A DNA stretch of 64,000 bases, taken from an uncultured Thermoleophilia bacterium. GTDB taxonomy: Bacteria; Actinomycetota; Thermoleophilia; UBA2241. The stretch spans positions 26,392 to 90,391 of the forward strand of contig CAVXJO010000012.1 in assembly GCA_963762125.1 (NCBI GenBank), read 5' to 3'. Every line of letters starts with the position of its first letter. Position 1 is the first letter of the stretch. Positions 41,619 through 52,923 of the stretch are shown here, one piece after another. The notes beneath the pieces are model-generated. The model was not told where the DNA came from, made no database searches, and saw only the letters and a program-made list of their open reading frames with translations. Made by a program: the position numbers and the translations under genes.

Positions 41619-42383
41619 TCACTTCACCTTGAACGTCATCGCCCTCGACTTGGAGGCCTTGGACGTCGCGGTCTTCGCGATGGACGCGGTCATGCGGTAG
41701 GTGCCTTTCTTGCCGGGCTTGTACTTCCAGGCGTAGGCCCCGGTGGCCTTCCCGGTGACGCGGGCCGTCTTGACCTTGACCCACTTCGCGCCCTTCTTGC
41801 GGTCGACCCTGACGGTGACCTTCTTGCCTGCCACCGTGGTCGCAGGCGTAGCTACACCCGAGGCCTTGACGGTCTTACGAAGCCTGATCGTCTTCGGCGT
41901 CACCTTCAGCGTGACCTTCGTAGCGATGACAGTCGCCGTCGCTGTCGGCGTCGGGGTCGGCGTCGCGGTCGCGCTCGGGGTCGGAGTCGGCGACGCATAG
42001 CCGTGGCAGCCATTCGTCGTCCCGCAGCCCGCGGTCCCGTGCAGAGTCTGGGCGGCGATGATGGTGGCCGTGGCACCGTGGCAACTCACGCACGCGCTCG
42101 GCAGGGGCGGGGTCGCCGTGCTGAGCGTGTGGCACGTACCGCAGGCCTGAGCTTTGTGGGTTGTCTTGTTGTGGAAGGCGTCATTGAACGAGTAGCTGTG
42201 GCAACTGCTGCACGGCCCAACCCCGTTCACGGCGGTGTCGAACGTGGGCAGCGCCTGGGCGTTCTGGGCGCCGATCGATGCGCTCACGGCGATGACCGCC
42301 AGCATGATCAGCAGAGCGGTAGTGGCCATCAGGATGGGAGTGGAGACTCCCCGCCTGCCGGCGTGTGCACGCACGATCCCCAT
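41619..42383 (-). CDS. secreted small multiheme c-type cytochrome (3 CxxCH plus 1 variant) with a Thr/Pro linker and a Lys-rich C-terminal beta-rich domain
   Basis: AAGGAG RBS; signal peptide MGIVRAHAGRRGVSTPILMATTALLIMLAVIAV; heme motifs CSSCH, CGTCH, CVSCH and CGTTNGCH; linker PTPTPSATATPTPTPTATAT; then a KVTLKVTPK...TFKVK tail. Confidence 0.7.
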   Translation of the reverse strand: MGIVRAHAGRRGVSTPILMATTALLIMLAVIAVSASIGAQNAQALPTFDTAVNGVGPCSSCHSYSFNDAFHNKTTHKAQACGTCHTLSTATPPLPSACVSCHGATATIIAAQTLHGTAGCGTTNGCHGYASPTPTPSATATPTPTPTATATVIATKVTLKVTPKTIRLRKTVKASGVATPATTVAGKKVTVRVDRKKGAKWVKVKTARVTGKATGAYAWKYKPGKKGTYRMTASIAKTATSKASKSRAMTFKVK

Positions 42384-42537
42384 GTAGCTCCTTTGGTTGT
42401 GTCTCATGTCACAAGCGTCTTCGGGTGACACTTTACCGGGTATTGAGCGTCTCCGCCACCGAAACTCCCTGGTCGTGCACGAGCGTGCGCGACGGGGTAA
42501 AGTGTCCGCGCGCGACCGTCTCGAGAAGGAGCAGCCC

Positions 42538-42984
42538 GTGCCCGTCGCAGACCGCCCCCGCCCCCCCGTCACCGCCTGGGTCCTGCTCGTCCTTCTGCTG
42601 ATCCAGGGCTTGGGTGGACTCGCCGGCGGGCTCTCGCTCACCATCGCACCCGACGGATCGATCCTGCAGATGTCGACGTCTCTGCTCGACGGCTCGCCCT
42701 TCCCTGACTTCCTCGTCCCGGGCCTCATCCTCATGCTCGTGCTTGGGGTGCTGCCGCTGGTCGCGGCCGTCGGCCTGTGGCTGCGCCGCAACTGGGCCTG
42801 GTACGCGGCGTTCGTCGTCGGCTGTGGCCTCATGATCTGGATCCTCGTGGAGATCGTCATCATCCCCTACAACTGGCTGCAGCCCCTCTTCGGCGGCGTC
42901 GGATTGCTGATCTTCGTCGTCTCACTGCTCAAGCCGGTGCGCCGCTTCTACGGTGTCAGCCTGCCGGGAGATGCCGGCGCCTGA
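42538..42984 (+). CDS. 4-TM membrane protein of unknown function
   Basis: AAGGAG RBS plus GTG; WVLLVLLLIQGLGGLAGGLSL...LILMLVLGVLPLVAAVGLWL...IWILVEIVIIPY... Confidence 0.55.
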   Translation: MPVADRPRPPVTAWVLLVLLLIQGLGGLAGGLSLTIAPDGSILQMSTSLLDGSPFPDFLVPGLILMLVLGVLPLVAAVGLWLRRNWAWYAAFVVGCGLMIWILVEIVIIPYNWLQPLFGGVGLLIFVVSLLKPVRRFYGVSLPGDAGA

Positions 42985-43060
42985 TCTCGATGTGCCGGCG
43001 GCGCCCGGCATCGTCAGCGCCGACAACACAGGTCCCTGCAGACCGGCGGCGAACATGCCG

Positions 43061-43582
43061 ATGCACACCGGGCAGAAGAGGCCAGCGGGAGCTTCCGTGC
43101 GCAGAGAGAGCACCAGACAGCGAGTGTTCCTTACCTTCGCCGCGGGCGACCTTGCGTGCGCGCGGCCAGAGACTGCGCGCCTCCTGGCCGGCGGAGGGAT
43201 CTGCCTCGATCAAGCACTGACCGGCGAGCCCTTCGCGAGCGAACGCGGCGCCATCATCCGCGCCAGCCTGCTGACGCGTCTGCGCCACTGCACCAGCGCC
43301 CTCTGCCTGTACGGGGCGCGCACGGCCGACGATGACTGGGTGCGCTGGGCGCTGGAGACCGCGGCCGAGCTCAGGCTCCCCCTGCTCGGCGCCGCCCTGC
43401 CCGGCCAGAAGTCGAAGGACGCGGAGCGCTACCTGACGCGGCTCGGCGCCGAACTGATCCCGCTGAATCGCGATGCGATCGTCACGCGCACGCGAGCGTT
43501 CTCCACTCGCCGCATCGCACCGGCGATCGACGCGGCGTCCATCGCCGAGACGCTGCATCTCATGCGCCACCAGGTGCGCTAG
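43061..43582 (+). CDS. small cytoplasmic protein with a TIR-like (DUF1863-like) pattern; the assignment is tentative
   Basis: RVFLTFAAGDLACARPETARLLAGGGICLDQALTGEPFASERGAIIRASLLTRLRHCTSALCLYGARTADDDWVRWALETAAELRLPLL follows the TIR βA-αA-βB...S-x-W-x-x-E layout. Confidence 0.4.
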   Translation: MHTGQKRPAGASVRRESTRQRVFLTFAAGDLACARPETARLLAGGGICLDQALTGEPFASERGAIIRASLLTRLRHCTSALCLYGARTADDDWVRWALETAAELRLPLLGAALPGQKSKDAERYLTRLGAELIPLNRDAIVTRTRAFSTRRIAPAIDAASIAETLHLMRHQVR

Positions 43583-43614
43583 CCGCGCGGCGGTTTCCCG
43601 CGGCCACGGCCGCG

Positions 43615-44517
43615 CTACGTCCCCGCGAGAACGACCAGATCCCGGCCACGCGCCTTCGCTTCGTACAGCGCATCGTCGGCGCGTGCGATGAGCGCGTCCA
43701 TGGACCCTCCGGCGTACACGGCCCCGCCCAGGCTCACCGTGACGGCGAGATCGCGTTCAGACGCCGTGAACGGCGCTTCGGAGGCGGCACGGCGAAGGCG
43801 TTCGAGAAGTTCGCTGAACTCGGCCGATGAGACTCCCGGCACGACGACGAGAAACTCCTCGCCGCCGAAGCGCCCGACGCTGTCGCAGGGCCGCAGCGTG
43901 GACTCCATCCTGCGCGCCAGCTCACACAGCACGTCGTCGCCGGCAGCGTGCCCGAACTCGTCGTTCACCAGCTTGAAGTGGTCGATGTCGAGCATGCCGA
44001 CGGCCAGCCGCGTGCCTTCGCGCGCGGAGCGCTGGAGTTCCTCGTCGAGAGCCTCCACGATGGCGCGACGGTTGGGCAGGCCCGTCAGGGGATCGGTATG
44101 CGCCTGCACCTCCAACCTCGTCTGCGTCTCGATCAGCTCCTCATTCAGCTCGACCAGCCGGCGACCCACCCCGATCCTCGCGCGCAGTTCGGCGGGGTCG
44201 TAGGGCTTGCCGACGTAGTCATCCGCGCCCGCTTCGAAGCCGGTCATCATGTGATCCTTCTCCCCGAGAGCGGTGAGGAGGATCACGTAGGGGGGCTGGC
44301 GCGTGTCGAGGGCCCGGACGCGGCGGCACACATCGATCCCGTCCATCTCCGGCATCATCCAGTCGAGGATGGCGATCCTGGGGGCGTCGTCTGCCTGCAG
44401 CACCCGCCAGGCGTCGGCGCCGTTGGTCGTCACCGCGACATCGTAGCCCCACTTCTCGAGCACCTTCTTGAGGAGCACGCGAGAGGTGATGTCGTCCTCT
44501 GCGATCAGCACCCTCAT
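43615..44517 (-). CDS. response regulator with a GGDEF output domain (PleD-like REC-GGDEF)
   Basis: [27 protein letters not shown]...[11 protein letters not shown] (REC domain), then LTGLPNRRA...[13 protein letters not shown] (GGEEF active site). Confidence 0.9.
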
Positions 44518-51603: not shown

Positions 51604-52923
51604 ATGAGCTCCGAACCTGGACCCGAACCGGGCCACGGAAGCGAGCCGGAGCGTCCGCCGCGCCGGCGGCGACGCCGGCGCGCACTCCGCATCGGCATCG
51701 TGCTCGTCGTGATCGCCGCGATCTTCGCCGGTGCGTCCCTGGCCGCGGCCGCCTACACCGAGCGCAACAGCTTCTGCGAGCACGCCTGCCACGAGATGGC
51801 GCCCTACGGCGCGACCTGGGAGAAGTCGGCCCACCACCAGGTGGCCTGCGTGCACTGCCACATCAAGCCGGGCACGGTGCAGTTCGTGAAGGCCAAGGGC
51901 TCGGCGCTGCGCGAGGTCTGGGTCCACTTCACCGGCGACGTCAAGGCCCCGATCGCCGTGACCCGCCACATCCCGGACGCGACCTGCACCACCAGCGACT
52001 GCCACCCGAGCGGGAGCGTCCCCAGCCCGATCACCCTCGTCAGCGCGGCCGCCGCCAGCGCTTCGCCCTCGCCGGCCGCGTCCTCAGCCCCGCCTGTGAC
52101 CTTCTCCCACACGCAGCATCAGGACGGCATACCCTGCATCGACTGCCACTCCCAGGTAGTGCACACGAACGTCCCCGGCAAGCCCTTCATCGACCCGGCG
52201 AGCATGGCGTTCTGCCTGCGCTGCCACGACGGCAAGCAGGCCTCCGGCGCCTGCCAGACCTGCCACAAGGCACCCCACGCCCAGCGCGGGCCGTGCACGG
52301 ATTGCCACGAGCTCGGCTCCTGGACGTCCACCTTCAAGCATCCCGTGACTTTGGGTCCGCAGCACCAGAAGATCGTCTGCGAGAAGTGCCATACCAAGGC
52401 GAGCGCGTTGGAGGTCGGCTTTCCGGCCGGCTGCGTGAGCTGCCACGCCAAGGAGCACAAGACCGTCAAGCAGGTCCTCTGCGCACGCTGCCACGTCGCC
52501 ACGCACTGGAAGCCCTCGACGTTCGAGCACCCGCAGGCCGGCTGCCAAGACTGCCACACTCGTCCCCACCCAGACCGCGGCGCTTGCCTGCGCTGTCACA
52601 CCACGTCGTCGTGGGCCAACCACTTCCGGCACCCGGTGGCGCTCGGCGGTCCCCACGCGAGCTTCTCCTGTGAGAAGTGCCACACGAGCGGGCTCGACGC
52701 GCCCGGCAGGGACTGCAGCAGCTGCCACGGCAGCCGGCACGGCGGCCTCACCGACTGCGCCCGCTGCCACACGACCGGCTCGTTCGTCCCGTCGACCTTC
52801 GACCACCCGCCGGCAGGCGAGCACAGCGCCGGGTCGTTCCCGTGCAGCGCCTGCCACCCGAACGGGAACTTCACCGGCGCCTACTGCTCCTGCCACGGCG
52901 GCAACCCGCCGTCCGGCGACTGA
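51604..52923 (+). CDS. membrane-anchored multiheme c-type cytochrome (about 14 CxxCH plus variants; NapC/NirT-like N-terminal anchor module)
   Basis: Arg-rich N-terminus, then a TM helix, then CEHACH/CVHCH, then repeated units CxxCH...HP... (CIDCH, CLRCH, CQTCH, CTDCH, CEKCH, CVSCH, CARCH, CQDCH, CLRCH, CEKCH, CSSCH, CARCH, CSACH). Confidence 0.8.
   Translation: MSSEPGPEPGHGSEPERPPRRRRRRRALRIGIVLVVIAAIFAGASLAAAAYTERNSFCEHACHEMAPYGATWEKSAHHQVACVHCHIKPGTVQFVKAKGSALREVWVHFTGDVKAPIAVTRHIPDATCTTSDCHPSGSVPSPITLVSAAAASASPSPAASSAPPVTFSHTQHQDGIPCIDCHSQVVHTNVPGKPFIDPASMAFCLRCHDGKQASGACQTCHKAPHAQRGPCTDCHELGSWTSTFKHPVTLGPQHQKIVCEKCHTKASALEVGFPAGCVSCHAKEHKTVKQVLCARCHVATHWKPSTFEHPQAGCQDCHTRPHPDRGACLRCHTTSSWANHFRHPVALGGPHASFSCEKCHTSGLDAPGRDCSSCHGSRHGGLTDCARCHTTGSFVPSTFDHPPAGEHSAGSFPCSACHPNGNFTGAYCSCHGGNPPSGD

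Follow-up and report, generated by a model that had tools for sequence, protein, structure and literature searches.

A ThsB-type TIR-like protein with a replaced catalytic glutamate, encoded in a conserved gene block of uncultured Thermoleophilia

TIR-like domains of bacteria are usually regarded as NAD-cleaving immune enzymes, and the catalytic glutamate of TIR NADases is thought to sit at a position structurally equivalent to that of nucleoside 2-deoxyribosyltransferase (NDT)-type glycosidases. Thoeris systems of types I to IV are defined by an adjacent ThsA effector, which is a SIR2-SLOG, a Macro plus transmembrane (TM), a SLOG, or a caspase protein. The TIR component of such a system is represented by ThsB of B. 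cereus MSX-D12 (PDB 6LHY and 9B7D), a stand-alone small TIR-like domain, in which the substitution E85Q abolishes both Thoeris defense and the synthesis of the cADPR isomer, and in which the consumption of NAD+ needs E85 (bioRxiv 10.1101/2021.01.06.425286; PMC10022894). The WxxxE motif is also required in a type II ThsB2. A second described protein, BcTir of the BcTir/BcTpr anti-phage system (B. cereus, PDB 8FZ9), keeps the glutamate (WVPHE), adjoins the gene of a TPR/glycosidase partner, and is reported to act in complex with this enzymatic partner, which sets a precedent: a ThsB-like TIR need not be the NADase itself.

Here we analyzed a 64,000-nucleotide stretch of DNA from an uncultured Thermoleophilia bacterium (the whole stretch is hereafter called the window), in which a preliminary description had proposed a small TIR-like protein encoded directly after a protein with four TM segments (4-TM). 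The features discussed below are, by position in the window:

42525-42531, + strand: Shine-Dalgarno-like GAAGGAG, 6 nt 5' of the GTG of the membrane-protein gene (read from the sequence)
42538-42984, + strand: membrane-protein gene, 148 aa, start GTG (ORF list)
42963-43010, + strand: GC-rich hairpin across the stop codon of the membrane gene (RNA fold and alignment of upstream regions)
43022-43096, + strand: conserved non-coding leader of the TIR-like gene, 75 nt (alignments of 26 unique loci)
43097-43582, + strand: TIR-like gene, 161 aa from its most likely start GTG 43097, or 173 aa from ATG 43061 (ORF list and homolog lengths)
43337-43351, + strand: codons W81-V82-R83-W84-A85, remnant of the ThsB WxxxE motif (alignments)
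43349-43351, + strand: Ala85 codon, at the place of the catalytic Glu (E85 of B. cereus ThsB; profile alignment to 6lhy and 9b7d, hhalign to ThsB and BcTir)

The upstream gene was confirmed as described, with its ribosome-binding site and with four hydrophobic segments in a Kyte-Doolittle scan of the 148-aa protein (at about residues 9-37, 53-84, 86-112, and 113-135). The downstream open reading frame (ORF), described as 173 aa long and 77 bp away, is real and ends at 43582; its ATG 43061 lies 76 bp beyond the stop of the membrane gene, but the true start is most likely GTG 43097 rather than this ATG. This is because the 147 homologous clusters of the protein are mostly 160-161 aa long, because a GGGAG sequence lies 6 nt upstream of the GTG, and because several orthologs have no usable upstream ATG: in one ortholog (L008), the upstream in-frame ATG is directly followed by a stop (ATG-TAA), and it is absent in two others (L024 and L030). 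On the same grounds, the upstream in-frame ATGs at 43055 and 43061 were ruled out as starts.

Given that many spurious long ORFs overlap the TIR-like region in other frames, and that a catalytic residue has been lost (see below), the gene could be suspected of being a chance ORF in a GC-rich genome or the decaying pseudogene of a former defense gene. This we consider extremely improbable, since full-length conservation across the 147 clusters is 50-94%, dN/dS is 0.17-0.28 with internal stops in none of nine orthologs, the AlphaFold2 fold is confident, and both the Shine-Dalgarno sequence and the leader are conserved. The observed purifying selection implies that the gene is functional.

The TIR-like layout that had been read from a few motifs was upheld by sequence profiles and by structure prediction. 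The protein matched the Pfam family PF08937 (ThsB_TIR, formerly DUF1863) at 21.2 bits in its 173-aa form and 21.4 bits in its 161-aa form, a marginal pass of the gathering cutoff of 21.2; however marginal for the single protein, this family was matched independently by 38 of 39 family members at E <= 1 (best, 2.8e-5), and TIR_2 was also touched by 17 of the 39. The ThsB1 model of PADLOC matched at E = 5.3e-6; neither the membrane protein nor the ten neighbors had any PADLOC match. An AlphaFold2 model built with 39 homologs (mean pLDDT 84.9) contains alternating strands (residues 8-14, 35-39, 67-72, and 96-100) and helices (16-31, 49-63, and 80-91) in TIR order, followed by two additional C-terminal helices of lower confidence. 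Foldseek agreed with the model in the order of elements and placed the fold as TIR/flavodoxin-like, with ThsB-type proteins as the nearest solved structures and BcTir as the best structural match. When the PDB was searched by sequence with the single protein or a narrow family profile, only a chance match to a PHD finger was returned; once the profile was widened by distant relatives drawn from a library of 1.84 billion proteins, it matched 8fz9 at E = 9e-23 and ThsB1 at 2e-12. A match to phrog_6988 (PHROGs; annotated as unknown function) was also found at E = 5e-4, but was uninformative. Nucleoside 2-deoxyribosyltransferase, DNPH1, and MilB N-glycosidases scored below the TIR/ThsB structures, and the protein has neither a sequence-profile match to this superfamily nor a glutamate at the equivalent position. 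By profile and predicted model, then, the protein is a TIR-like domain of the ThsB_TIR/DUF1863 type (core, residues 8-121) and continues into a C-terminal tail of about 37 residues that is peculiar to the family (residues 125-161) and ends in ...ETLHLMRHxxR. The lack of any TIR-fold match, named in the preliminary description as grounds for refutation, was accordingly not observed.

The catalytic residue, by comparison, is missing. The motif 'S-x-W-x-x-E' of the preliminary description is not literally present: the actual local sequence is T-A-D-D-D-W81-V-R-W84-A85-L-E87, and the glutamate of the canonical ThsB motif, W-V-x-W/Y-E, pairs with Ala85 rather than with E87. In the profile-to-PDB alignment, the column after W84 falls on the Glu of 'WVRYE', which is residue 85 of B. 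cereus ThsB counted from Met1, and when the family was aligned by hhalign to ThsB and to BcTir, the register was identical, with A85 opposite the Glu in both. Within the clade, this residue is A, T, S, G, V, or I in all 21 members of the family alignment, versus E in 26, Q in three, and A in one of 30 distant relatives. The Glu of WxxxE in helix C, by which catalytic TIR NADases of the ThsB, AbTir, and SARM1 type are recognized, is thus not found in this protein, so the check for this residue proposed in the preliminary description came out negative.

Nearby acids were considered as substitutes and rejected. E87 and E91 both vary in the clade (the E87 column holds E, D, Q, T, A, G, S, and H), and E87 is two residues off register; Asp79, two residues before W81, is invariant, but canonical relatives carry Ser, Asn, or Asp there, as expected of a helix N-cap. 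No acidic residue of helix C is conserved in the clade alignment. Because the catalytic Glu is replaced by a small residue, the protein is most likely unable to cleave NAD+ by the TIR mechanism, and from this one missing residue we infer that NADase activity is most likely absent.

An enzyme with a relocated acid was weighed against this conclusion. The protein might be a divergent N-glycosidase of the TIR/NDT superfamily with, for example, Asp38 as the acid, whose substrate would be NAD+ or a different nucleotide and whose role would lie in ordinary metabolism and not in defense. Asp38, at the end of strand B, is the sole clade-specific invariant acid; like Ser57, it does not vary within the clade but does so among canonical relatives. 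The strong purifying selection would also fit. Furthermore, a gene for an adenosine/AMP-deaminase lies directly after the TIR-like gene in one locus (L032, 5561-6580) and one to three genes away in four others (L001-L003 and L076; L001:11576-12631 and L076:4452-5441). This proximity could be a hint of a nucleotide link, or could reflect just shared ancestry of the block, and in the window the deaminase gene is absent from that position, where a convergent GGDEF gene is found instead. The position thought to be catalytic in both NDT glycosidases and TIR NADases is, however, the very one that was lost, and the placement of Asp38 in the pocket is without geometric support, so we regard a relocated-acid enzyme as unlikely.

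An exhaustive profile search of 1.84 billion proteins returned 87 representatives at E <= 1e-3, which split into a distant canonical group and a nearer group. The distant group consists of short DUF1863/ThsB-like proteins with 'S-x-W-V-x-W-E', whereas the nearer group (P0121-P0139 and the window family) has 'D-x-W-V-x-W-[A/T/S]' and a C-terminal tail that ends in '...MRHPLR'. Motifs kept in the Glu-less family are FLTF..D, EPF in the BB-loop region, IRASL, and W81/W84. The family probably descends from canonical ThsB-like proteins with 'WVxWE', in which the catalytic Glu was swapped for a small residue (Ala85 here). Five Glu-containing distant relatives (P0148, P0155, P0168, P0174, and P0177) have a TIR-like domain preceded by a fused module of about 60 residues at the N-terminus; the shared module reads '…RKRxDTLxxTxExxYGIDLxxRxDxKLG.LL..RGF.S…' and looks like a recurrent architecture.

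At the genome level, the TIR-like protein was found in 27 loci, all from uncultured Thermoleophilia or Actinomycetota metagenome-assembled genomes (MAGs), with one labelled Acidobacteria. In that one (L025; MWBB01000040.1, labelled Acidobacteria bacterium ADurb.Bin340), the TIR-like and surrounding ORFs are almost residue-for-residue like those of an Actinomycetota MAG (L024), and this near-identity across two phylum labels suggests a mis-binned contig. A Rhizobium locus (L031) returned by the genome scan was dropped as a 31-residue chance match.

Compared with ThsB, the window protein shares the F-L-S/T-F..D start, the W-V-x-W/Y at the start of helix C, and the predicted order of strands and helices in a likewise stand-alone small domain. 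It differs in having Ala in place of E85, the extra conserved tail of about 37 residues, and no ThsA gene, and its family is confined to a single actinobacterial lineage, in which it shows synteny and vertical inheritance rather than patchiness; its similarity to ThsB is only at the Pfam threshold. Versus BcTir, which has no C-terminal extension, the window locus has no TPR protein. The protein is best described as a Glu-less, C-terminally extended, lineage-restricted offshoot of ThsB-like TIR domains.

The membrane protein gave few clues of its own. The sole family signal was a sub-threshold match to Pfam DUF2127 (E = 4e-4; 21 bits against a cutoff of 24.3), PADLOC returned zero matches for the 148-aa protein, and neither Pfam nor PADLOC found a Macro, SLOG, or SIR2 domain in it, the protein being almost purely TM segments. 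Its 333 homologs are all close.

The two genes often travel together, but not always. Of the 26 eligible loci in the close clade, 19 have a complete membrane gene directly upstream, one has part of it, and six lack it (L010, L016, L024, L025, L028, and L030); three of the six (L016, L028, and L030) still show a C-terminal '...VRRFYGV' remnant of it (on the + strand in L028 and L030). Among 34 eligible contigs of the divergent 'WVRWT' subclade, known from metagenomes, just seven carry the intact gene, two retain short remnants, and 25 lack it, although these contigs are not all independent lineages; two contigs of this kind, L047 and L043, have like neighbors and differ in that the membrane gene is present in the former and missing in the latter. 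Co-occurrence is thus not obligate, as it would be for a module made of a TIR and a membrane effector. Where present, the membrane gene is always directly upstream of the TIR-like gene on the same strand, and the pair is adjacent also in L032, L036, L044, L047, and others. In L032, it is kept amid surroundings that otherwise differ, and the membrane protein is 66% identical versus 40% for the TIR-like protein; in both loci sampled from the side of the membrane gene, the TIR-like gene is next. This constant adjacency, together with L032 and the two sampled loci, makes some functional link between the genes plausible. The simplest history is probably that of an ancestral pair from which the membrane gene was lost repeatedly; since the TIR-like gene was kept each time, the TIR-like protein does not need it, and the 4-TM gene would probably be an ancestral neighbor rather than an obligate partner.

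At two of the loci without the membrane gene, its place is filled by an unrelated antisense ORF (L028:4862-5923 and L030:4621-5403, both on the - strand), whose product combines a zinc-ribbon-like N-terminus with a proline-rich middle part and a single segment of strong hydrophobicity. A further observation concerns three members of the divergent subclade (L043:3566-4756, L047:3566-4756, and L039:2742-3932), in which the product of the gene directly downstream is 396 aa long and resembles glutaredoxin at its N-terminus (…YTKQWCPFCAKAK…).

Part of the sequence between the two genes is conserved. The 75-nt leader consists of three near-invariant blocks, ACACAGGTYCCTGCAG, GCGAACATGCCGATG, and GAAGCCAGCGGGAGCTTC, with variable spacers between them, and conservation in the blocks exceeds that in much of the coding sequence. 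The last of them (GAAGCCAGCGGGAGCTTC) contains a 5-bp hairpin with the Shine-Dalgarno sequence in its loop. The leader sequence occurs once in the window and is retained in loci that have no membrane gene (L024, L025, L028, and L030). A scan of 42300-43700 against Rfam yielded no family, only sub-threshold chance matches, and no sigma-70 consensus was found in the leader. RNAalifold proposed an anti-Shine-Dalgarno helix, which we do not claim, as all of its paired columns are invariant, covariation is absent, and the window breaks one pair.

Just upstream, the GC-rich hairpin across the stop codon of the membrane gene (42963-43010) is weak evidence for a terminator, because the z-score of the whole region is not significant; at the equivalent spot, eight other loci (L012-L014, L019-L021, and L026-L027) have other, variable hairpin-forming insertions. 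These hairpins at the stop of the membrane gene may be factor-independent terminators without a U-tract. Because the leader is conserved and persists without the membrane gene, and because of the hairpins, the arrangement points to a separate promoter/leader for the TIR-like gene and not to tight operonic coupling with the membrane gene. The leader itself may be a promoter/operator or an RNA switch.

The surroundings of the pair are those of signaling genes, in agreement with the preliminary description. Upstream are an OmpR-type histidine kinase/response regulator (HK/RR) pair, a 4HBT thioesterase, and, on the opposite strand, a cytochrome c7-like protein; downstream and convergent are a GGDEF response regulator, an RR-HPt protein, and a PAS hybrid kinase. 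The Pfam domains of the ten neighbors are signaling or redox domains (HisKA/HATPase, Response_reg, 4HBT, cytochrome c7-like, GGDEF, Hpt, and PAS). It was also rightly noted that no defense island is obvious, as PADLOC gave zero matches for the ten neighboring proteins, none of the ThsA-defining domains (SIR2, SLOG, Macro, or caspase) occurs among them, GC content is even across the region (0.66-0.75), and the window has no tRNA genes. A block of nitroreductase, ferric reductase, FMN_bind, ApbE, HK, RR, 4HBT, cytochrome c7-like, (membrane), and TIR-like genes is common to the 27 genome loci, and the identity of the TIR-like protein to that of the window tracks the identities of the 4HBT, RR, HK, and membrane genes (Spearman 0.57-0.68). 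The TIR-like gene is chromosomal, passes vertically, and sits in a block of conserved synteny.

These observations bear on the original proposal of a two-gene Thoeris-like abortive-infection module, in which the TIR protein would sense phage and make an NAD-derived signal or act directly, and would thereby activate the 4-TM protein to disrupt the membrane. The ThsB-like fold, the adjacency on one strand (seen in the majority of close loci as well as in L032, L036, L044, L047, and others), and the fact that membrane-anchored ThsA does occur in type II Thoeris speak for such a module. Against it, the glutamate that is essential in ThsB is missing clade-wide, no ThsA-type effector is adjacent (the membrane protein itself having no Macro, SLOG, SIR2, or PADLOC match), the membrane gene was repeatedly lost while the TIR-like gene was retained, a conserved leader of its own precedes the TIR-like gene, and the locus shows a vertical syntenic block with even GC and no defense genes nearby instead of a defense-island or mobile context with patchy distribution. 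We therefore abandon this part of the preliminary description as very improbable.

The account that we favor, and think probable, is that of a Glu-less ThsB-type TIR with a family-specific C-terminal tail, vertically inherited, which serves as a non-enzymatic binding or scaffold protein and is not part of a Thoeris or abortive-infection module. We infer that it would bind a partner protein or a nucleotide through the TIR surface, the retained pocket, and the conserved C-terminal tail. If the Glu-less clade is indeed a functional non-enzymatic TIR, it would exemplify the reuse of an immune enzyme fold as a core, vertically inherited bacterial binding protein.

A more far-reaching version, which we put forward only tentatively as possible, is that a ThsB-type immune TIR was domesticated in an uncultured actinobacterial class, where it lost the Glu, gained the tail and the regulatory leader, became fixed, and took up work as a non-enzymatic receptor or scaffold outside phage defense. 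Such a domesticated TIR might bind NAD-derived nucleotides or gate a partner such as the 4-TM protein. If true, it would be a bacterial counterpart, outside phage defense, of the animal adaptor-type TIRs, although the non-catalytic adaptors MyD88 and MAL/TIRAP have no detectable sequence relation to the window protein beyond the fold and differ from it in domain context (a death domain and others).

For annotation, the PADLOC and Pfam ThsB_TIR models would label this gene ThsB, and a match to a TIR model alone is insufficient to call Thoeris; such calls also require a look at whether the catalytic Glu and a ThsA partner are present and at the phyletic pattern. Practical value today is modest, as the organisms are uncultured and the function is putative.

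Finally, some genes of the wider neighborhood deserve mention. The cytochrome c7-like protein with a repeat-rich C-terminal part (41619-42386, - strand) and a NapC/NirT-plus-c7 multiheme cytochrome (51604-52923, + strand) occur in the window together with ferric-reductase/FMN_bind/ApbE genes at about 36-39 kb, which suggests a redox/electron-transfer neighborhood of a kind that is, to our knowledge, uncommon in Actinomycetota.
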